DNA from: Escherichia phage I29
DNA: 64,000 nt
Sequence record: ON286975
Reading direction: 5' to 3' (one strand)
In this document: positions 24,211 to 62,414 of the stretch, in pieces
Numbering within the stretch: the stretch's first letter is position 1
Layout: every line of letters begins with the position of its first letter
Notes under the pieces: generated by a model
The model's input: the letters and a program-made list of their open reading frames with translations, nothing else
Told to the model about the DNA's origin: nothing
The model's database searches: none
Translations under genes and position numbers: made by a program

Positions 24211-25767
24211 TTAATTTTCCATGTTGGATATGGAATTATCTCTGGTTGATGATATCTTAGAAGTGCCGTTGCCAGTGGATCCTGCAGCCATTCCATCACC
24301 AGCTCTACTGATGTCCTGGCCCAAGAGCTTCATCAGCTCTTCCTGATCCATGTCCTCGTCAAATCTTTCATCAAACCCGCCTACTTCAAGAATCTTATTA
24401 ATTACTGCAGGAGTTTTTGGCAAGTAACCTACAGCACCGATCCTCTGGACAAACTTGGAGAAGCTCTCCATATCCACTTCTTCAATCAGACCAGGTTTCA
24501 GTTTAGGCATATCATCATCTTCAAGGATGATACCATTCAATGCCAGAAGCTGTGGAATAAGATCCTTATTGAAGGCTTCAGTGATAATATCTATATCACG
24601 CTGAACAAAATGACCATGGATAGACTGTTTTGACTCAGACAGAGAGAAGGATCCAACGTTATCGTTACCGAGGTTAATAAAGCCAGCACCGAAACGGTCA
24701 AGAATCGCCTTCTTACGGGCATCAATCAAATCTTTAGTGGAATACTGCTTACCCATACCGTCAACCCCCTTCAGGGTCATGGAGTAAAGCTCTTTACCAG
24801 ACTTATCTCTATCAGACGGAAGTATAAAGAAACTTTGCTCACCACTATGGGCGTTTGCTGCGTCAAGCATAAGGTCTGCAACCATTCTCCCTTCCATTGA
24901 ATTCGGGTCAATGCTGGCCTTGTTCAAAATATTGGAAGGAATTTTCAGCTCAAGCACACCACCAAGGTCTTTGGAACAGCCAACAACCTCAAGGTTTTCA
25001 ATCAGAACTTTCTCACGGAAAGATCTGTAGCAACCTATCATAGGTGACACACCTGCAGGGTTAGATTCTGTTCCTGACAGGGTCATGAGCATAAGCTTTT
25101 TAGCAGGGATGAAAATTTCAGGCTCATTAAAGCCTTTTGAAGGCATTGCAGCAAGAGGTCCAGCCCAGCGTGCATTCTGAGTGTTTAGAAATGCATTAGG
25201 TGACTGATAAATACCTGTCAGTGTTCTGCTATTCTTATCAAAAACAAACGGCTCTGATCTGGACAGGCTGGCCTGAGGCCGGAATGCAATTTTATCGATA
25301 AGAAGCATCCCGGCATATTTACCTTCTTTCTCTCTGCGGTATACTTTCTCAAACAGTGAAAAACCATACTCGTTAAAGGTAGCTGCGCTTCTTGCAATAT
25401 CTCGAAGAGTTTGTTGGTTTGCCAAATTACGCAAAGAATACTCTATAAGCTCGGCAGCTTTCTTAGAGTCTTCACTTTTAACATTATAAAGGATCTTAAA
25501 ATCATTGAATGCTTTCGTGATGAAAACATATTTTGTATCTAAGGCAGTAGCAACTGTGGAATCACATTTCATAGTCTCCACTGTGGCAATCAGCTGAGGC
25601 CAACGCAATTCCTCAACCATCATAGATTGCGATTCTGCCATAATTTGGGAAAGTGCGCCAGAACCGATCTCACTCATACGAACATTATGAGTTGGTGCGC
25701 CTGCGTTCCCAGATTTATTCACAGTTTTGGCTGTGGCGTTGTGTTTCCTGCGGTTCTTTTTGGACAC
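24211..25767 (-). CDS. portal protein
   Basis: 518-aa ORF immediately downstream of large terminase; size and acidic C-terminus typical of portals. Confidence 0.7.
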   Translation of the reverse strand: MSKKNRRKHNATAKTVNKSGNAGAPTHNVRMSEIGSGALSQIMAESQSMMVEELRWPQLIATVETMKCDSTVATALDTKYVFITKAFNDFKILYNVKSEDSKKAAELIEYSLRNLANQQTLRDIARSAATFNEYGFSLFEKVYRREKEGKYAGMLLIDKIAFRPQASLSRSEPFVFDKNSRTLTGIYQSPNAFLNTQNARWAGPLAAMPSKGFNEPEIFIPAKKLMLMTLSGTESNPAGVSPMIGCYRSFREKVLIENLEVVGCSKDLGGVLELKIPSNILNKASIDPNSMEGRMVADLMLDAANAHSGEQSFFILPSDRDKSGKELYSMTLKGVDGMGKQYSTKDLIDARKKAILDRFGAGFINLGNDNVGSFSLSESKQSIHGHFVQRDIDIITEAFNKDLIPQLLALNGIILEDDDMPKLKPGLIEEVDMESFSKFVQRIGAVGYLPKTPAVINKILEVGGFDERFDEDMDQEELMKLLGQDISRAGDGMAAGSTGNGTSKISSTRDNSISNMEN

Positions 25768-25782
25768 AAGCTTTACCCCTCA

Positions 25783-25817
25783 AAACAGTATAACAAAATA
25801 GCCCTCGTCAGAGGGCT
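25783..25817 (-). terminator. hairpin with T-rich tail after terminase gene (weak terminator or attenuator)
   Basis: AGCCCTC-loop-GAGGGCT 7-bp stem; minus-strand downstream sequence ATTTTGTTATACTGTTTT. Confidence 0.4.
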
Positions 25818-25867
25818 AGTATCTCCAATTACTTTATTGTACCACATCTAATTAAGATTGGCAACAC

Positions 25868-27415
25868 TTAGATAAAACGCTTGAACATAGAAGGTGATGA
25901 GATTGATGGAATCACACAAGGAAGTGCTACCTCCTCTTTCTCTAGGAAATTAATCGCAGAAGCTACACAGTCGGCCCAGTCGTCTTTTCTGTTAAATGTT
26001 GATCTTTCCCCGTTGAATTTTTCAAGTTCAGTCAGAAATGCTTCCAGAGTATCAGGATGGAAACTGGATTTTACAATCCTCACCATTCCTTGTTGGGCAA
26101 GATTGGCAAAAGGTGAGAACCTTGTCAGTTTAGACTTGTTGGAAGGCATTGGGTCTTCTTCAACCCTGAACCCTTCGGCAAGCAAGGATCTGGAGGAGGT
26201 TAAGAACTCACTCTTACCTGCCTGCCCTGGGTCCACAGAGAAGACGATTATGCAATCATCACCATCGAACTGCGCCTGTTTCCTGATGATCACATCTCGT
26301 TCACCAGCCTTTTTACAGAACTTGCCTTCCAGACCTGTGGAATACCTCCCGTCATCCACGTTCTCAGGACAATAATCACCGGACAGGTAATAAAAGCCGT
26401 CGCTATCTTTACTTACCTTAATACTGGCAGTAAAGTCAGGAAATTTATTACCGGAAGTTCTCTCGGTTCCTGCCTTATCCCATGCCCTGCAAGATACTGA
26501 CCCAAGAGGTACTCTATCGGCATCACGAAGGAAAGATCTTTGAAAATAGTTTGCACCCTCAGGCTTTGCAAACCAGTTACCATGGAGAAGCTGAGCTTTT
26601 TCCAGCTCTGGTAGACCTTCGAGGAAAGCAAGGTATTCTGGGTTGTCTCTCAAACAGACAGGATTATCGAATATTGTTGCGCCTATGAACGAGAATGACA
26701 ACGGTCTTGGCTTGATCTCTACGCCAAGTCCGTTAACCGTGGTGTATTTCTCTATCAACTCTTCTTTAGAGTCTCCCCAGATAAATTCACCGTCGCGTCG
26801 GATAAAATATCTTTTCTTACCGCATTTCTCCGGATCTGGATACCCTTCATCGTCCAACCACCATCTAACCAGTTTGGCAAGCATGTGTTCTGAATCGGGG
26901 TTACAGCTGATAACCATTCTTGATGGATACTTTGACTGAGATCGCAGACGAGACATCAGATAGTCTATCTGCTCCCATTCGAACTGCGTGCCCTCATCGA
27001 AGCAAACCATGGTGTACTCAAGCCCCTGATGGTTAAGCTTATCTTGTACATACTCCATATGGCAGTATTTTACAACAGCTCCCTTTTTGCTTCTATCCCA
27101 CTTACCAGTGTTCGGATCAAACCGTGGAAAAATGAACTTATGATCCTTCTCTCTGAACTTTGGCTTAATGTTTTCAGGCAGATCACTGTAAATAGCTACT
27201 GCTTTAGGCCATAGTCCACCCTCACCTTCCAACTGTGGGGTTGTTCTTCGGAACATAACCACAGAGCTGTGGGGGTCATCAATAATTTTAAGTGGCATCA
27301 ACTGCAAGAGGAACGACTTGCCAGACCCTGCGGCACCGCCGATTACCAAAATATCTGCATCGTTTTCTAGGATCATCTTCTGCTTTTCAGAACACGGTCC
27401 GTAAATCTTAGACAT
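25868..27415 (-). CDS. terminase large subunit
   Basis: 515 aa; Walker A GGAAGSGKS near N-terminus, Walker B-like VCFDEG, nuclease-type C-terminal half. Confidence 0.85.
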   Translation of the reverse strand: MSKIYGPCSEKQKMILENDADILVIGGAAGSGKSFLLQLMPLKIIDDPHSSVVMFRRTTPQLEGEGGLWPKAVAIYSDLPENIKPKFREKDHKFIFPRFDPNTGKWDRSKKGAVVKYCHMEYVQDKLNHQGLEYTMVCFDEGTQFEWEQIDYLMSRLRSQSKYPSRMVISCNPDSEHMLAKLVRWWLDDEGYPDPEKCGKKRYFIRRDGEFIWGDSKEELIEKYTTVNGLGVEIKPRPLSFSFIGATIFDNPVCLRDNPEYLAFLEGLPELEKAQLLHGNWFAKPEGANYFQRSFLRDADRVPLGSVSCRAWDKAGTERTSGNKFPDFTASIKVSKDSDGFYYLSGDYCPENVDDGRYSTGLEGKFCKKAGERDVIIRKQAQFDGDDCIIVFSVDPGQAGKSEFLTSSRSLLAEGFRVEEDPMPSNKSKLTRFSPFANLAQQGMVRIVKSSFHPDTLEAFLTELEKFNGERSTFNRKDDWADCVASAINFLEKEEVALPCVIPSISSPSMFKRFI

Positions 27416-27702
27416 TAACCTCTCTCCTTTGGAAACAGTGTTCTAATATAGTCTTGCAAAATGATCAATTTAGCTCTATCATTGCTACAAGACAGATTAT
27501 TATCCCTCATAATGCCAGAATTCACTGCATCTGGCGCACCTTTCTTCAAAGGCATAGCTTTAGCAGGTGGTTTCATGGCACCTTCCGGGGGTTTAACAAT
27601 CAACCTTCCTACATCCGGAGGGTCAATCTTGTATTCTCTCTCAACGCTGGTTGCACACCCACATAATAACAAGCACACAATAAACAGTGTAGCAACTCTC
27701 AT
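27415..27702 (-). CDS. o-spanin-like outer membrane lipoprotein (Rz1-like)
   Basis: 95 aa; signal peptide with Cys-containing lipobox-like LLLCGCATS; Pro-rich mature region; ends ...ERG as lambda Rz1 does; overlaps upstream i-spanin-like gene by 4 nt. Confidence 0.6.
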   Translation of the reverse strand: MRVATLFIVCLLLCGCATSVEREYKIDPPDVGRLIVKPPEGAMKPPAKAMPLKKGAPDAVNSGIMRDNNLSCSNDRAKLIILQDYIRTLFPKERG

Positions 27703-28097
27703 CTACCCTCCTGATTAATACTCTCATTATAAATATCTATAAGCTGATCAGGGAGTGTTGACTTCTTACCCTCAGGTGACTGGAGGTAAATAATCTGCTT
27801 TTCTTTACCTGCCTTCTCAGCCATATTTAATTTATCCTGTAGATCAGAAAGGGATTTTTCAAGGTTTTTAACCTCCTCTGCGTGGCCCATTTTAATTTTG
27901 TCGGCCTGCTTTTGTTGCTGATCAAGGATCCGTTCCCACTTTAACTCTGTTGCTGACACACCTTCTTGGTAGGCATCATTAAGCTTAGAGTTAAACCAAT
28001 ACACGGCCCCAAGATAAGCTGTACCTATCGCAGCTGCAAAAACTAAACCTTTTATGATCCATCTATACCTGCTCAGCCATGTTAAAACTGAAATCAT
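27699..28097 (-). CDS. i-spanin-like protein (Rz-like)
   Basis: 132 aa; N-terminal transmembrane segment (WIIKGLVFAAAIGTAYLGAVYWF) followed by charged coiled-coil-like region. Confidence 0.55.
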   Translation of the reverse strand: MISVLTWLSRYRWIIKGLVFAAAIGTAYLGAVYWFNSKLNDAYQEGVSATELKWERILDQQQKQADKIKMGHAEEVKNLEKSLSDLQDKLNMAEKAGKEKQIIYLQSPEGKKSTLPDQLIDIYNESINQEGR

Positions 28098-28113
28098 TTT
28101 AAGGCTCCAGAAA

Positions 28114-28148
28114 CGAAAAAACCCCGCAGCTATACAGCTAACGGGGCG
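28114..28148 (-). terminator. hairpin plus T-tract (terminator) upstream of spanin genes
   Basis: Minus-strand CCCCG...CGGGG stem enclosing AGCTGTATAGCT, followed by TTTTTTCGTTTCT. Confidence 0.45.
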
Positions 28149-28202
28149 GGTTAAAATTGAGTAACCTAAATAGATCGAAACTAACTAAAAGGAGACTAAT
28201 AC

Positions 28203-28472
28203 TTATCGAGGCACTCGGTGGATGATTCTAACAGTAACTGCATTTTCATTCATCAAGTATGCATCTACATCTCTGTAAATATAAAACTTCTGCTCACTAT
28301 CAACAACACAAGCTACCGCCCCTTCAGAGTTGTCTTCAAAAAAGACCACCACTGCATCGCAGCTGAGTTCATGATATGACTCTCGAAGATTTACAGCCAG
28401 AGGATTGAAATCGTCACGAAAATCTACGGTATGGGTTGGATTTACACGCTCTACAATTTTAAGTGTATACAT
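28203..28472 (-). CDS. hypothetical protein
   Basis: ORF track 28203..28562 would overlap tRNA-Pro; internal ATG at 28472 (MYTLKIVERV...) has an AAGGAAC RBS. Confidence 0.4.
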   Translation of the reverse strand: MYTLKIVERVNPTHTVDFRDDFNPLAVNLRESYHELSCDAVVVFFEDNSEGAVACVVDSEQKFYIYRDVDAYLMNENAVTVRIIHRVPR

Positions 28473-28518
28473 TTTAAAGGTTCCTTTTGTTTGTATATGT
28501 TTAAAGTATAACTGAAAG

Positions 28519-28595
28519 TGGTCTCCACGGAGTGATTCGAACACTCGACCTCCTGATCCCAAATCAGGCGCTCTACCAAGCTGAGCTACGCGGAG
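28519..28595 (-). tRNA. tRNA-Pro (anticodon UGG)
   Basis: Hand-folded: acceptor CTCCGCG/CGTGGAG (C1-G72), anticodon stem CCTGA/TCAGG, loop TTTGGGA, T-arm GAGTG-TTCGAAT-CACTC, encoded CCA. Confidence 0.8.
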
Positions 28596-28606
28596 TATTT
28601 ATTATT

Positions 28607-28681
28607 TGGTGGCCCTGGGTGGAATTGAACCACCGTCTGGCGATTATGAGTCGCTTGCTTGAACCTTCCAGCTACAGGGCC
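28607..28681 (-). tRNA. tRNA-Met or Ile2 (anticodon CAU)
   Basis: Hand-folded: acceptor GGCCCTG/CAGGGCC, anticodon loop CTCATAA, T-arm GGTGG-TTCAATT-CCACC, encoded CCA. Confidence 0.75.
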
Positions 28682-28682
28682 A

Positions 28683-28758
28683 TGGTGCTGATGGCAGGAC
28701 TTGAACCTGCAACCTATTGATTACAAATCAATTGCACTACCAATTGTGCTACATCAGC
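28683..28758 (-). tRNA. tRNA-Thr (anticodon UGU)
   Basis: Hand-folded: acceptor GCTGATG/CATCAGC, D-stem GCAC/GTGC, anticodon stem ATTGA/TCAAT, loop TTTGTAA, T-arm GCAGG-TTCAAGT-CCTGC, CCA. Confidence 0.8.
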
Positions 28759-28763
28759 AAAAA

Positions 28764-28862
28764 GGTGCTAGGTGATGGAATCGAACCACCTATGTATTCA
28801 ACGACTACCTCGTCTATTTTCAGGATTAAAAATCCTCGCCCTTGCCAAAGGGCTTACCTAGC
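28764..28862 (-). ncRNA. atypical tRNA-like element (possible pseudo-tRNA or small stable RNA); anticodon not assignable
   Basis: 7/7 complementary acceptor ends GCTAGGT/ACCTAGC, D-arm GCCC-TTTGGCAA-GGGC and T-arm GGTGG-TTCGATT-CCATC, but the 46-nt middle has no canonical anticodon arm and contains a tight AGGATT-TTT-AATCCT hairpin; 3' end is ACC-T rather than CCA. Confidence 0.35.
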
Positions 28863-28960
28863 TCAGTATGTTGACCATGTTGCTAGTCGGCGATGACGAC
28901 TGTAACATTTGATAATCCGGTTCTGCTTCCGGCTTTCGCTTAATTACAAGGTCAACAATA

Positions 28961-29051
28961 TGGCTGAGGGTAATGGAATCGAACCATCATCAAGTCATCC
29001 TCAACGGGACGGTTTTCAAGACCGCTTGAGCACCATTGCTCCCTACCCTCA
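28961..29051 (-). tRNA. tRNA-Ser (anticodon UGA), type II with long variable arm
   Basis: Hand-folded: acceptor TGAGGGT/ACCCTCA, anticodon stem GCGGT/ACCGT, loop CTTGAAA, long variable arm, T-arm GATGG-TTCGATT-CCATT, discriminator G, CCA. Confidence 0.7.
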
Positions 29052-29165
29052 TTTATAAACAATACTGATAATGACACTGATTTTCGAGCAGTTAGTGACT
29101 AGTATAAACGACGATAAATATCAATGCCATTATCTGTATGATTTATGCATTTAAAACTATAAATT

Positions 29166-29252
29166 TGGTGGGGAGTGGTGGAGTCGAACCACCCGAGTCG
29201 CAATGACAATAGATTTACAGTCTACACCGCTACCCCTACGGGATAACTCCCC
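29166..29252 (-). tRNA. tRNA-Tyr (anticodon GUA), type II
   Basis: Acceptor GGGGAGT/ACTCCCC, anticodon loop CTGTAAA and variable arm TGTCATTGCGACTCG closely resemble bacterial tRNA-Tyr; T-arm GGTGG-TTCGACT-CCACC, CCA. Confidence 0.8.
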
Positions 29253-29256
29253 AATT

Positions 29257-29331
29257 TGGCACCCCGTACTGGACTCGAACCAGTGTCAACGGCTTAGAAG
29301 GCCGCTGCTTTATCCACTAAGCTAACAGGGC
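29257..29331 (-). tRNA. tRNA-Arg (anticodon UCU)
   Basis: D-arm TTAGCTTAGTGGATAAAGC, anticodon stem-loop GCGGC-CTTCTAA-GCCGT, T-arm ACTGG-TTCGAGT-CCAGT, CCA; resembles bacterial tRNA-Arg(UCU). Confidence 0.75.
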
Positions 29332-29389
29332 ACTGGGTGGCTTTCTTTTACACCTTAGCCGCCAGAAAAGGTGGGAGACCATGTTTACA

Positions 29390-29419
29390 ATATTACACTG
29401 TTAAGCAAAGTTTGTCAAG
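29390..29419 (-). promoter_or_regulatory. sigma70-like promoter (TTGACA-18-TAATAT) upstream of tRNA cluster
   Basis: Minus-strand reading cTTGACAaactttgcttaacagtgTAATATtg, about 60 nt upstream of the first tRNA. Confidence 0.5.
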
Positions 29420-29427
29420 AAAATATT

Positions 29428-29766
29428 TTAGCTATTGCTAACAGGTTGTATTTCTGTGGTAAATGGCATAAAAGGTGCTGGTTTTTCAGCCTCTTCTACT
29501 ACCACCTCTTCCTCTTCACCAAACATCTCATCATATTCTTCCTGCATTCGGTCTGCCTTATCAAGAACATACTCTGCAATGCTTTGACGAATATTTTGTT
29601 TGGTTTTCGGGTCCAACATCAGCTCTCTTAAAACTTTGTGAGCTTCTGGAACCATCGCTATAAAAGATTCCTTCATATCAAGGATGTTCTTCTCTAGCTG
29701 AATGGCGTTGGACTCCTCTTTCAGAGGTCTGCCTCTACGGCGACGCTTTTTAGTTGTATCCGCCAT
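29428..29766 (-). CDS. small DNA-binding-like protein with AT-hook-type motif and acidic C-terminus
   Basis: ORF track 29428..29886; ATG at 29766 has a GGAGGAAAC RBS and sits downstream of the promoter at 29795..29823. N-terminus MADTTKKRRRRGRPLKEE contains an RGRP core; C-terminus is Glu-rich. Confidence 0.45.
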   Translation of the reverse strand: MADTTKKRRRRGRPLKEESNAIQLEKNILDMKESFIAMVPEAHKVLRELMLDPKTKQNIRQSIAEYVLDKADRMQEEYDEMFGEEEEVVVEEAEKPAPFMPFTTEIQPVSNS

Positions 29767-29794
29767 GTTTCCTCCATTATCACGTGATAGGTGG

Positions 29795-29823
29795 ATTTTA
29801 TCATAGCAAATACTGATTGTCAA
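29795..29823 (-). promoter_or_regulatory. sigma70-like promoter (TTGACA-17-TAAAAT)
   Basis: Minus-strand reading cTTGACAatcagtatttgctatgaTAAAATcc; same TTGACAAT...TAAAAT pattern as the promoter at 16115..16143. Confidence 0.55.
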
Positions 29824-31711: not shown

Positions 31712-31820
31712 GTGTCCGTATCACGGACAGCTAGTGTCCGTATTACGGGCAGATGTGTCCGCGTGACGGACAGTAGTGTCCGTATCACGGACAGTTAATA
31801 GTATCCGTTCCATGGCGAAC
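31712..31820. repeat. array of four tandem ~21-bp direct repeats (iteron/operator-like), each with internal inverted repeat, plus one degenerate copy
   Basis: GTGTCCGTATCACGGACAG at 31712-31730 and 31776-31794 (identical), GTGTCCGTATTACGGGCAG at 31734-31752, GTGTCCGCGTGACGGACAG at 31755-31773, degenerate copy about 31800-31820; spacing 22/21/21 bp; each unit contains GTCCG...CGGAC. Confidence 0.8.
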
Positions 31821-31868: not shown

Positions 31869-32219
31869 CTAACCAGTTGTTGACATCCGAATAACTTCTT
31901 CTGGTGGCAAAACTTTGGAAAATGTGCATCTTTTACCTCTCCCTTGTGTGGATGTTTCAACCACTCCTGCACATTCTAAAGTTTTAACGCACGCTGCTGC
32001 TTTTGTTTTCTTTATCCCAACATCTGCTGCAATTTTCCTTGTGCTTGGTGTGAAGCGTGAATTTCCTCCAAGCTTATACCAGTTGTGCAGGTAGCAGTAT
32101 ACGATCTTGTCATACAAGTCAAGAACAACAACCTCCCCAGTTGTGTCATTCAAAACTTTTGACATAGATAGTATTTCAAGGGGGACTTTAAGATATAGCA
32201 GCTTATCCCCATCTTTCAT
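31869..32219 (-). CDS. hypothetical protein, possible helix-turn-helix DNA-binding protein
   Basis: 116-aa ORF; segment STRKIAADVGIKKTKAAACVKTL has helix-turn-helix character (inference); 3' end abuts the iteron array. Confidence 0.35.
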   Translation of the reverse strand: MKDGDKLLYLKVPLEILSMSKVLNDTTGEVVVLDLYDKIVYCYLHNWYKLGGNSRFTPSTRKIAADVGIKKTKAAACVKTLECAGVVETSTQGRGKRCTFSKVLPPEEVIRMSTTG

Positions 32220-38153: not shown

Positions 38154-38624
38154 ATGAAACTTGATAAAAATGTTCAACGAAAAGCTTTCTTGGATATGAT
38201 CGCATATTCAGAAGGCACAGATAATGGTAGACAACCCACCAAGGATCGGGGCTATGATGTCATAGTTGGTGGCAAGCTGTTTAGCGATTACAGCAAGCAT
38301 CCAGGTGTGTACGTTAAGCTAAATGCTAAACTTACCTCCTCCGCTGCTGGGCGTTACCAGGTTTTGGAGAAGTTTGCTAAACACTACATGGAACAGTTAG
38401 GATTGCCAGATTTTGGCCCTGCCAGTCAGGACAAGATTGCGTTGCAACTGATCCGTGAGTGCAAGGCTCTCGCCGACATTGACGAAGGGCGTATCCACGA
38501 GGCTATCCATAAATGCCGTTCCCGCTGGGCTTCGTTACCTGGTGCTGGATATGGTCAGCATGAACAGAAGATTGAGAAGTTGATCGAGGTGTTTAAAAAG
38601 GCAGGCGGTGTTGTCCTTGATTGA
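38154..38624 (+). CDS. endolysin, lambda R-like lytic transglycosylase
   Basis: 156 aa; near-colinear similarity to lambda R as recalled: QRKAFLDMIAYSEGTDNGRQ ... GYDVIVGG ... AAGRYQ ... WASLPGAGYGQHEQ. Confidence 0.85.
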   Translation: MKLDKNVQRKAFLDMIAYSEGTDNGRQPTKDRGYDVIVGGKLFSDYSKHPGVYVKLNAKLTSSAAGRYQVLEKFAKHYMEQLGLPDFGPASQDKIALQLIRECKALADIDEGRIHEAIHKCRSRWASLPGAGYGQHEQKIEKLIEVFKKAGGVVLD

Positions 38625-38687
38625 TCATTGACATAACCACACGGACGTGGTATTGTTGCCTCATAGAATGTTCGAAAGGGTTTAACC

Positions 38688-38894
38688 ATGAAAGATTTTC
38701 TGTTGGCAATTTTGTTCATGGCAGCATGTCTGGCCTGTGGTGTCGTGTTTGCAGGTGAAACAGCGTATCTTGTCGATGTATATCGGGACAATGGTAAACG
38801 TATTTGCCTTTATGAGACAAGCCAAGGTGAGCTCTACGAGCTTGTGAAACAAGGCGAGGCTGGATCTTGTCCTCGCACCCATTTCTTTGAATGA
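38688..38894 (+). CDS. small secreted/membrane protein (signal peptide, Cys-containing)
   Basis: 68 aa; hydrophobic N-terminus FLLAILFMAACLACGVVFAG; immediately downstream of endolysin. Confidence 0.4.
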   Translation: MKDFLLAILFMAACLACGVVFAGETAYLVDVYRDNGKRICLYETSQGELYELVKQGEAGSCPRTHFFE

Positions 38895-60511: not shown

Positions 60512-60745
60512 ATGAAAGTTAAATTTCTTACAGATTTAGGGTACCCTTCCTTGGTTGACTGTGTTGGTAAAATTGTGGAAGCAAAACGGCTATCTGCAAA
60601 CGAGAATGTTGTCCTGGTTAAAGGGAAGGATTTACTAGCTGCAGGTGCAGAGTCTGGCAGGATCTCTCCTGATTATATGTATTACCTATCTTTAAGTAAT
60701 CTGCCAGAGCGAGGCGGTAAAGGCCTTGAAGTTGTGGAGGAGTGA
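60512..60745 (+). CDS. hypothetical protein
   Basis: 77-aa ORF. Confidence 0.35.
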   Translation: MKVKFLTDLGYPSLVDCVGKIVEAKRLSANENVVLVKGKDLLAAGAESGRISPDYMYYLSLSNLPERGGKGLEVVEE

Positions 60746-61275
60746 CAGGTATGCTTCTGATTAACTGGGAAGACCTCTATGGGGACAAAGACCCTGTTGC
60801 GTTTGTTGATCGTAGGTGGAGATACACTGAAGAACAACTGGCGGCAAAAAATTTAACTGCAAAACGCAGAAAGATCATCCAGTGCAAGTACAAATACGCA
60901 CAGTTTGCTGCAAAAGTGTCTCCACAAATCGAGAGCTTTGTGCTTAAATTGTATGACGAGTACCTCAAATTCAAATTGGATTTTGTACAGGTGTACCGTG
61001 CACAGGTACGACCAGATACCAACATATGTAGATGGAAGGTTGTTTGTGACGGTAAAGATTTGCCGCTCAGCTTGACAATTGAGTGGCGTTATGGGTATCA
61101 TGAGTGTGGTCTGTATGATATTTGGGATGTCATTGTAGATCCTGCTAAGCATCTGAACACAGAGGAGCTGGAATATATCAATAAGGTTATTCTCGATATG
61201 TTTTTCAGCTACACCCATGAAAACTCTGAGAAAGAACGGGATAATTTTCTTGACACCCTCAGCTGCCATTTGTAG
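60742..61275 (+). CDS. hypothetical protein
   Basis: 177-aa ORF. Confidence 0.4.
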   Translation: MTGMLLINWEDLYGDKDPVAFVDRRWRYTEEQLAAKNLTAKRRKIIQCKYKYAQFAAKVSPQIESFVLKLYDEYLKFKLDFVQVYRAQVRPDTNICRWKVVCDGKDLPLSLTIEWRYGYHECGLYDIWDVIVDPAKHLNTEELEYINKVILDMFFSYTHENSEKERDNFLDTLSCHL

Positions 61276-61305: not shown

Positions 61306-61542
61306 ATGAGTATAAATGTTGTGCTAATAGGTTACCTGGTAATGTCCGTTATAACAGCGGTATTCTTGACAGGTGTATGCATCGTGTCCAGACGAAGGGT
61401 GAAGTTTGATGATTTTATCACCATCATCACTGCTGCACCTTTTTGGCCTGTTGTTATCTTCATCGTGATAATGTGCCTGGTTGATTACTACAAGAATATC
61501 CGTAAGGAGAAAAAGGAGGGTAGGGATGGAGACCGCACCTAA
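61306..61542 (+). CDS. small membrane protein with two predicted TM segments (holin-like topology)
   Basis: 78 aa; two hydrophobic stretches (VLIGYLVMSVITAVFLTGVCIV and ITAAPFWPVVIFIVIMCLV) and a charged C-terminus. Confidence 0.4.
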   Translation: MSINVVLIGYLVMSVITAVFLTGVCIVSRRRVKFDDFITIITAAPFWPVVIFIVIMCLVDYYKNIRKEKKEGRDGDRT

Positions 61543-61678
61543 AACTGTTTATACTGTTCTTAAAGAGATTGCGTTCTACGCAGATCTTAGTCAGGCACCT
61601 TTATGGGAAAAGAACATGTATTTAAAATGGTGCGTTAATTTAGGGAGACCTTCCAGTGTTTCAAGCCATGTTTATTGA
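61526..61678 (+). CDS. hypothetical small protein
   Basis: ORF track 61481..61678; ATG at 61526 (METAPKTVYTV...) has a GGAGGG RBS. Confidence 0.3.
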   Translation: METAPKTVYTVLKEIAFYADLSQAPLWEKNMYLKWCVNLGRPSSVSSHVY

Positions 61679-61743
61679 GATGCTATCTGGGGTATTGTTA
61701 CTGGTAGCCATCTTAGGTGGTGCAGTTCTGATGTATAACTATC

Positions 61744-61947
61744 TTGAAAAAGGAGACAGTAATGGCAAAAAATAAATCTTTAGAGCAGGCTGAAAACCTT
61801 CTCCACGAGCTGGTAAAGGAGTGGAAAGTCGAATACTCAGATTTTAATGCACGAGAGGGTGAAGATTATTGGCCTACGGAGCGCTCCGAGGGTGAATGGT
61901 ATCAAGATTTTATAGAGTGGTTATATCAGACGTGCGATGAGGGGTGA
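61744..61947 (+). CDS. hypothetical protein
   Basis: 67-aa ORF. Confidence 0.35.
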   Translation: MKKETVMAKNKSLEQAENLLHELVKEWKVEYSDFNAREGEDYWPTERSEGEWYQDFIEWLYQTCDEG

Positions 61948-62414
61948 CGATGTTTGTTAAATATGTAAAAACGTGCCTCAACAGCCTTGGCAGAGAGCAT
62001 TGGTACACCTTGCTTGAAAAAGGAGAAATTTTAACAAAATCTGGAAAGATAACTTTGATACCTCTTGATAGTAAAGGTAAAGACCCGTCACGACTTGTTA
62101 TAGATGATTACGTTACAGGTGTGACGTTCGAGGTCTCTGTGGAGAGGTTAATACGCAGAGCTGGCGGCCCTTATGACCGAAGAGAGTATGTTTTCGATTC
62201 CGTTACAGAGATGGGGGAGCATCCGTCTTTAATGTTCAGGATGGTAATCAGAGATATGAGGTCATCTATAGATAGGATCGTAAAGGACATTAAGGAACCT
62301 TTTAGAGTAAAAGTTAAGAAGTTTTTCGATTCTAAGATTAACATACTCGCCGTTGCACTAGGTGTAGTTCAACTTCTGTTAATTTTGCACTATTTTGAAC
62401 TGTTGTTTAAGTAG
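61944..62414 (+). CDS. hypothetical protein
   Basis: 156-aa ORF; hydrophobic C-terminus. Confidence 0.4.
   Translation: MTMFVKYVKTCLNSLGREHWYTLLEKGEILTKSGKITLIPLDSKGKDPSRLVIDDYVTGVTFEVSVERLIRRAGGPYDRREYVFDSVTEMGEHPSLMFRMVIRDMRSSIDRIVKDIKEPFRVKVKKFFDSKINILAVALGVVQLLLILHYFELLFK

Follow-up and report, generated by a model that had tools for sequence, protein, structure and literature searches.

The 64,000-nucleotide stretch of the Escherichia phage I29 genome analyzed here (sequence record ON286975; hereafter the window) carries on its minus strand, directly upstream of the gene for the large terminase subunit (TerL), two small genes whose products have the features of an inner-membrane and an outer-membrane spanin (i-spanin and o-spanin). 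The three genes, which follow one another with overlapping stop and start codons, are:

27699-28097, minus strand: predicted i-spanin, 132 aa, with an N-terminal transmembrane domain (TMD); phrog_4297, 8.6e-49
27415-27702, minus strand: predicted o-spanin, 95 aa, a proline-rich lipoprotein; phrog_1267, 1.3e-22
25868-27415, minus strand: TerL, 515 aa, one uninterrupted open reading frame (ORF); phrog_979, 3.4e-208

Features and identity of the spanin pair

The 132-aa protein contains one hydrophobic stretch (residues 14-32; mean Kyte-Doolittle value of 1.8 in a 19-residue window) that is flanked on its N-terminal side by R10, R12, and K16, that is, a single N-terminal TMD as expected of a type-II inner-membrane protein. 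The N-terminus of the 95-aa protein, as read from the sequence, is MRVATLFIVCLLLCGC followed by ATS, and comprises a signal peptide, the lipobox LCGC with Cys16, and an alanine at position +2. The protein has the make-up of a small lipoprotein (signal peptide, lipobox cysteine, and no aspartate at +2) and, because of the alanine at +2, would not be expected to be retained in the inner membrane, consistent with sorting to the outer membrane. Nine of its 95 residues are proline and its mature part is 80 aa long, giving the short, proline-rich periplasmic domain looked for in an o-spanin. Both proteins match, far beyond chance, PHROG families that are annotated as Rz-like spanins (the two families listed above). 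The genes are adjacent, as is typical of two-component spanins, with the i-spanin stop codon overlapping the o-spanin start by 4 nt (ATGA, 27699-27702); the o-spanin stop in turn shares 1 nt with the start of TerL (TAATG), and each start is preceded by a Shine-Dalgarno-like sequence. These overlaps suggest translational coupling of the spanins to each other and to TerL. Coordinates, TMD, lipobox, and PHROG matches agree with one another and bear out the initial annotation of this DNA, which had placed i-spanin- and o-spanin-like genes on the minus strand directly upstream of TerL and had proposed topology prediction as a check; the TMD at residues 14-32 and the lipobox at Cys16 support that assignment.

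By the criteria of Kongari 2018 the two genes would represent a two-component spanin of the "separated" architecture. In their overall design, a type-II protein of the inner membrane whose periplasmic part is predicted to be helical, paired with a small proline-rich outer-membrane lipoprotein, they resemble lambda Rz/Rz1, and in the arrangement of their genes, separated and with overlapping stop and start codons, they resemble T4 PseT.3/PseT.2. From homology with these two systems we infer that the i-spanin is anchored in the inner membrane in type-II orientation and that its helical periplasmic domain would span the periplasm. Once a holin had released the soluble lambda-R-type endolysin (described below) and the murein had been degraded, the spanin complex, freed by the loss of murein, would fuse the inner and outer membranes and so complete lysis.

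A quite different identity for the 132-aa protein, perhaps together with the 95-aa protein, is that of the small terminase subunit (TerS), which the initial annotation had itself raised. The slot directly upstream of TerL and the overlapping stop and start codons would suit such a protein, no TerS is annotated anywhere in this group of phages, and the 95-aa gene is named "putative large terminase subunit" in several GenBank records [pangalan (pangalan_150), ime, nomo, magaca, and naam]. However, this name was propagated by BLAST from APCEc02 without domain support and is a misannotation that should be corrected. Moreover, the 132-aa protein carries a TMD at its N-terminus and is paired with a lipoprotein whose lipobox cysteine is invariant, the matches to spanin PHROGs are strong while neither Pfam nor the PHROGs yielded a TerS match, and in T7 the spanins sit between TerS and TerL. 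The topology features leave the TerS reading of the 132-aa protein essentially refuted, and we grant it hardly any probability.

Several points nevertheless weigh against reading the pair as spanins. We found no experimental test of these particular proteins in the literature searched. A Pfam scan returned no model for either protein, the i-spanin having sub-threshold chance matches and the o-spanin none. The AlphaFold2 (AF2) model of the i-spanin, with a helix at residues 12-100, a disordered segment at 101-116, and a second helix at 117-127, resembles Rz in that the transmembrane helix appears to run on into a long helix; its confidence is low, however, with a mean predicted local distance difference test (pLDDT) score of 60.8 from a shallow alignment. 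The weakness of the model results from the homolog search for a deep alignment having returned only close relatives (at least 81% identity). On the side of expression, no sigma-70-like site lies between the i-spanin ATG and the terminator-like hairpin upstream of it, and no match to the rV5 "late" motif TGGTAAAATA occurs in 28098-28250, upstream of the spanins. Lastly, the i-spanin has no cysteine and the o-spanin has one in its periplasmic part (C72), which is replaced by alanine in PVP-SE1 and Certrevirus. An intermolecular disulfide has been described as general for two-component spanins, and the T4 o-spanin needs two conserved cysteines for disulfide links (Kongari 2018); as the i-spanin lacks cysteine and C72 is not kept, such a disulfide does not appear to be a feature of the family to which the I29 pair belongs. 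The cysteine content appears to be the sole departure of the pair from the general spanin rules.

Both the cysteine content and the lack of a published experiment would also fit a pair of envelope proteins of some other role, such as superinfection exclusion or envelope remodelling, that resemble spanins in topology alone. Against this, the adjacency of a TMD-protein gene and a lipoprotein gene, their 4-nt overlap, the sizes of the products, the proline-rich o-component, and the predicted helical i-component all fit spanins, as do the position in a late operon and the strict co-conservation of the two genes across genera. In addition, the annotations of these genomes (Murica and the BASEL records) contain no further spanin candidate. 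We regard another envelope role as very improbable and conclude, from the combined sequence features, that the two proteins very probably constitute a genuine two-component spanin of an rV5-like coliphage.

Conservation, gene order, and expression of the spanin-TerL unit

Adjoining the spanin and TerL genes in the window are the following features:

24211-25767, minus strand: portal protein, downstream of TerL
28115-28147, minus strand: hairpin resembling an intrinsic terminator, with an 11-bp stem (one bulge) followed by U6; -17 kcal/mol
28203-28472, minus strand: 89-aa protein (p89), immediately upstream of the spanins, without a TMD; phrog_8729, a family of unknown function
28519-29331, minus strand: cluster of seven tRNA genes, upstream of the spanin-TerL unit

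The window is about half of an rV5-like (Vequintavirus) myophage genome of ~137 kb. A megablast search of the phage database with the 3.7 kb around the spanin genes matched hundreds of rV5-like records. Identity was 99.9% with Escherichia phage pangalan and 98-99% with Murica, ime, nomo, rV5 variants, and numerous further phages; these all belong to Vequintavirus (subfamily Vequintavirinae). Among the database matches to positions 25800-29500 of the window are ~18 GenBank entries (MG0656xx) that bear the name "Campylobacter phage" and give C. jejuni as host. They are 98.6-99.9% identical to I29 and are probably mislabelled or co-isolated coliphages.

Identity of the spanin pair is 93-99% within Vequintavirus and falls to 23-36% for the counterparts in PVP-SE1 (Seunavirus) and PcCB7V (Certrevirus). 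Alignment with the latter two phages revealed what is kept at this distance: in the o-spanin, the invariant Cys16 and an NNL...LQ.Y motif, and in the i-spanin, the TMD and a C-terminal D-x-Y-N-E-S motif. Both genes are annotated as i-spanin and o-spanin in Murica (gp65/gp64), in the manually curated BASEL phages (including MaxTheCat; the i-spanin is the point at which these genomes are opened), and in numerous further records; the same genes carry these names in the LL12 genome announcement. A "rv5" spanin family of seven members, for instance PVP-SE1 gp78/gp77, was listed by Kongari 2018, and the spanins of rV5, PVP-SE1, and CB7 have been described as lying beside the large terminase and outside any lysis cassette (CB7 paper, PMC7344957). 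The pairs of rV5, PVP-SE1, Murica, and LL12 are the same proteins as those of I29, with the same 4-nt overlap and the same place directly upstream of TerL, and nothing substantive sets these pairs apart from the I29 spanins. The pair and its place by TerL are already known from publication and are ordinary for this phage group; their importance beyond correct annotation is slight. Cocktails for phage therapy and biocontrol make use of rV5-like phages, in which the pair and its neighborhood have already been described.

Where I29 does differ from rV5, LL12, and some other relatives is in TerL, which is uninterrupted here and split there. Introns or a homing-endonuclease insertion divide the gene in rV5, LL12, nomo, magaca, HdK5, and PDX, and the megablast matches to these phages consequently fall into two to three pieces.

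Vequintavirus, Seunavirus (PVP-SE1 and GAP31), Henunavirus, and Mydovirus share the order tRNA cluster, variable gene, i-spanin, o-spanin, TerL, portal. In Certrevirus, represented by one record (PcCB7V), the tRNA cluster, the variable gene, and the spanin pair are seen, and the record ends before TerL is reached. Which gene lies immediately upstream of the spanins depends on the genus, with products of 89, 474, and 214 aa. The spanin-TerL layout is the normal one and is conserved in the subfamily Vequintavirinae. Within the tRNA cluster of the window lies a 99-nt tRNA-like gene [28764-28862 (minus strand)] with a 4-base anticodon, reported by ARAGORN as tRNA-???; its counterpart in Murica is annotated as tRNA-OTHER (Asp|Gly), and the position-matched tRNA in MaxTheCat as tRNA-Lys.

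The terminator-like hairpin ends ~20 nt before the i-spanin ATG, a distance that leaves no room for a canonical promoter, and a terminator is annotated at the same place in Murica. The closest promoters upstream resemble the consensus and lie at 29418, ahead of the tRNAs, and at 29823, ahead of the gene for a 112-aa protein (discussed below). The rV5 "late" motif is enriched in the window as a whole, with 19 matches vs. 6.4 expected. This arrangement of signals suggests that the spanins and TerL are probably made, at a modest level, from transcripts that read through the terminator. The spanin genes would then be the first cistrons of a packaging/head operon, directly behind an intrinsic terminator, and would be made together with the terminase.

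The same layout is found in T7, where the spanins (gp18.5/gp18.7) lie immediately upstream of TerL (gp19) in the late packaging operon, after TerS (18); in the T7 record that we retrieved the order of the late region is holin 17.5, TerS 18, spanins 18.5/18.7, and TerL 19. The likeness of the two spanin pairs is one of gene layout, and there are two differences: in T7 the o-spanin gene lies wholly inside that of the i-spanin, whereas the genes of I29 are separated apart from their 4-nt overlap, and the genes directly upstream are holin 17.5 and TerS 18 in T7 but p89 and the tRNA cluster in I29. T4, which shares the separated architecture, differs in that its spanins are not beside the terminase, as well as in its cysteines, the I29 o-spanin having the one, non-conserved periplasmic residue noted above. 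Lambda differs in gene architecture, with Rz1 embedded in Rz within the S-R-Rz/Rz1 cassette, whereas in I29 the two genes are separated and outside any cassette. Unlike their lambda counterparts, neither I29 protein matches a Pfam family, and the I29 i-spanin is devoid of cysteine. In both phages, however, the spanins would act after an R-type endolysin, the endolysin of I29 being a homolog of lambda R.

The endolysin, a holin candidate, and lysis timing

Three genes on the plus strand bear on the steps of lysis that would precede the action of the spanins:

38154-38624, plus strand: endolysin, 156 aa, lambda-R type; phrog_90, 3.2e-56; PDB 1AM7, 3.4e-56
38688-38894, plus strand: 68-aa protein (p68) with an N-terminal signal peptide or TMD; sigma-70-like promoter at 38628-38656
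61306-61542, plus strand: holin candidate, 78 aa, homolog of rV5 gp129; two TMDs; C-terminus rich in K/R, KNIRKEKKEGRDGDRT

The initial annotation had described a lambda-R-like endolysin about 10 kb and a strand apart from the spanins, together with a small signal-peptide protein in the same plus-strand region, and both descriptions are accurate. The endolysin lies 10,057 nt from the start of the i-spanin gene, on the opposite strand, in a replication/repair module where it is situated between DNA ligase and an HNH endonuclease, and the small protein is p68. As a holin or antiholin p68 did not hold up, because its homologs in Vequintavirinae of Serratia and Salmonella lie in the same ligase-exonuclease region but have no endolysin next to them and because it has a promoter of its own; we do not find it convincing as a lysis gene. 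That the homologs of p68 stay in the same region in these relatives without an endolysin makes the endolysin itself look like a lineage-specific insertion between DNA ligase and p68. Pfam scans of the endolysin, p68, and p89 returned nothing useful.

The endolysin has no N-terminal hydrophobic segment of the signal-arrest-release (SAR) type and no signal sequence, and a hole-forming holin is therefore expected to be needed for it to reach the cell wall. The earlier statement that no holin is obvious beside the spanins or the endolysin stands: in a hydrophobicity scan no further membrane protein, besides those named here, flanked either locus. What had been overlooked is a candidate elsewhere in the window. 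The scan, which covered all ORFs of the window, identified the 78-aa protein encoded at 61306-61542, whose homolog in rV5, gp129, was proposed as a holin (Kropinski et al., rV5 paper), and which on the strength of this homology we consider a putative holin. The protein is restricted to Escherichia Vequintavirus, and its sole strong match is a PHROG of the function-unknown class. A sigma-70-like promoter lies directly upstream of its gene. Its topology is ambiguous because the loop between the two TMDs, SRRRVKFDD, is strongly basic. In the full genome of rV5, membrane proteins number 15. Confirmation of a holin would complete the lysis pathway of these phages.

The gene for the 78-aa protein is the first in a cluster of membrane-protein genes [61306-62414 (plus strand)]. 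Two further genes of the cluster encode proteins of 39 aa (61656-61775; a single TMD) and 156 aa (61944-62414; a TMD at the C-terminus), and the larger of these matches phrog_7821, "virion structural protein". Upstream of the cluster is a gene for a 177-aa protein [60742-61275 (plus strand)] to which the BASEL records give the name "putative glycosidase". Neither Pfam nor a sequence search of the PDB supported this name, and the idea of a second endolysin-holin cassette at 60.7-61.5 kb was therefore rejected.

The initial annotation took the split layout to suggest non-standard lysis timing, and a non-standard program could take the form of an early endolysin, holin-free lysis, or timing limited by the spanins. 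The endolysin does lie in the plus-strand replication/repair module, the authors of the LL12 announcement did not identify a holin and the BASEL annotation has none, and the spanins stand behind a terminator without a promoter of their own. However, an endolysin without a SAR segment or signal sequence needs a holin, and the homolog of the proposed rV5 holin, with its two TMDs and charged C-terminus, is present. The lysis genes of T4 (e, t, and the spanins pseT.3/pseT.2) are likewise scattered over the genome of a large virulent myophage (Kongari 2018; rV5 paper), and the layout seen in I29 is conserved across the genera of Vequintavirinae and has been published. T7 and T4 are as dispersed as I29 and their timing is holin-controlled. 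The endolysin of T7 (gp3.5) is encoded far from the late genes, among genes of DNA metabolism. Lysis timing is set by the holin, and in lambda and T4 neither the endolysin in the cytoplasm nor the spanins anchored in the membrane act before the holin triggers; the positions of their genes therefore do not set timing. From what is established for lambda, a cytoplasmic endolysin and membrane-bound spanins would be harmless before triggering in I29 as well. A special timing is thus not supported by the dispersed layout, in which the spanins adjoin TerL, the endolysin lies in the replication module, and the holin candidate is elsewhere, and we consider a non-standard lysis program improbable.

A small terminase candidate and nearby elements

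No TerS is annotated in Vequintavirus (Murica, pangalan, and the BASEL records), and none was identifiable in Certrevirus (P7_Pc paper). The absence of a recognizable TerS gene directly upstream of the spanins and TerL in the window, remarked upon in the initial annotation, is confirmed in that p89, the protein encoded there, has no match to a TerS family. By analogy with the T7 TerS, gp18, which is also 89 aa long, p89 was considered as a candidate and rejected, since the two proteins share no similarity and the p89 slot is occupied by unrelated proteins of 474 and 214 aa in other genera. Beyond the tRNA cluster lies another small gene:

29428-29766, minus strand: 112-aa protein (p112); phrog_3330, "hypothetical" in every record

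This is the sole small protein conserved across genera in the region upstream of the tRNA-spanin-TerL block. Its basic N-terminus (RRRGRPLKEESNAIQLEKN), which includes RGRP, is invariant, as is the motif PFTT(D/E)I at the C-terminus; the protein also has an acidic linker, and three helices are predicted. When the profile of the p112 family was compared with the PDB, the top match was the TerS of PaP3 (7JOQ), at a weak E = 0.17. A hidden Markov model search of 1.84 billion representatives yielded 22 clusters, and distant members of the family match TerS PHROGs (P0047 with phrog_2538, 5.4e-9; P0044 with phrog_7344, 2.5e-3). In the P0047 family, 14 of the 23 members match TerS phrog_2538, and hhalign of the p112 family with the P0047 family gave a probability of 69.8% and E = 4.2e-5 over a 35-column helix-turn-helix segment. 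Other results did not strengthen this reading: a Foldseek search of the PDB with the AF2 monomer of p112 returned no match, BLASTP of p112 against T7 gp18 was not significant, and contigs carrying P0052, a TerS-like bridge family, had no recognizable TerL adjacent to it. The promoter of the gene [29823-29795 (minus strand); TTGACA-17-TAAAAT with an upstream TG, that is, an extended -10] is near the sigma-70 consensus, which is atypical for a late packaging gene.

Taken together, these remote similarities leave it possible, though tentatively so and with the odds against it, that p112 is the missing small terminase or DNA-recognition subunit of Vequintavirinae, set apart from TerL by the tRNA cluster, the variable gene, and the spanins. 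If this were true, the gene order would be T7-like, TerS ... spanins-TerL, stretched by insertions. A confirmed TerS would help to define the packaging strategy and the transduction risk of these phages; in LL12, terminal repeats of 459 bp have been inferred.

Between the -10 element of the p112 promoter and the ribosome-binding site is a perfect 10-bp palindrome, ATCACGTGAT (29779-29788), which could serve as an operator. Positions 31712-31797 hold four tandem repeats of 21-22 bp, each with the palindrome GTCCGT..ACGGAC, in non-coding DNA where the pangalan record marks a repeat_region. The repeats lie just downstream of a winged-helix gene (31869-32219; phrog_12838, "transcriptional regulator / replication initiation protein"); they are iteron-like and could represent an origin or a protein-binding array.

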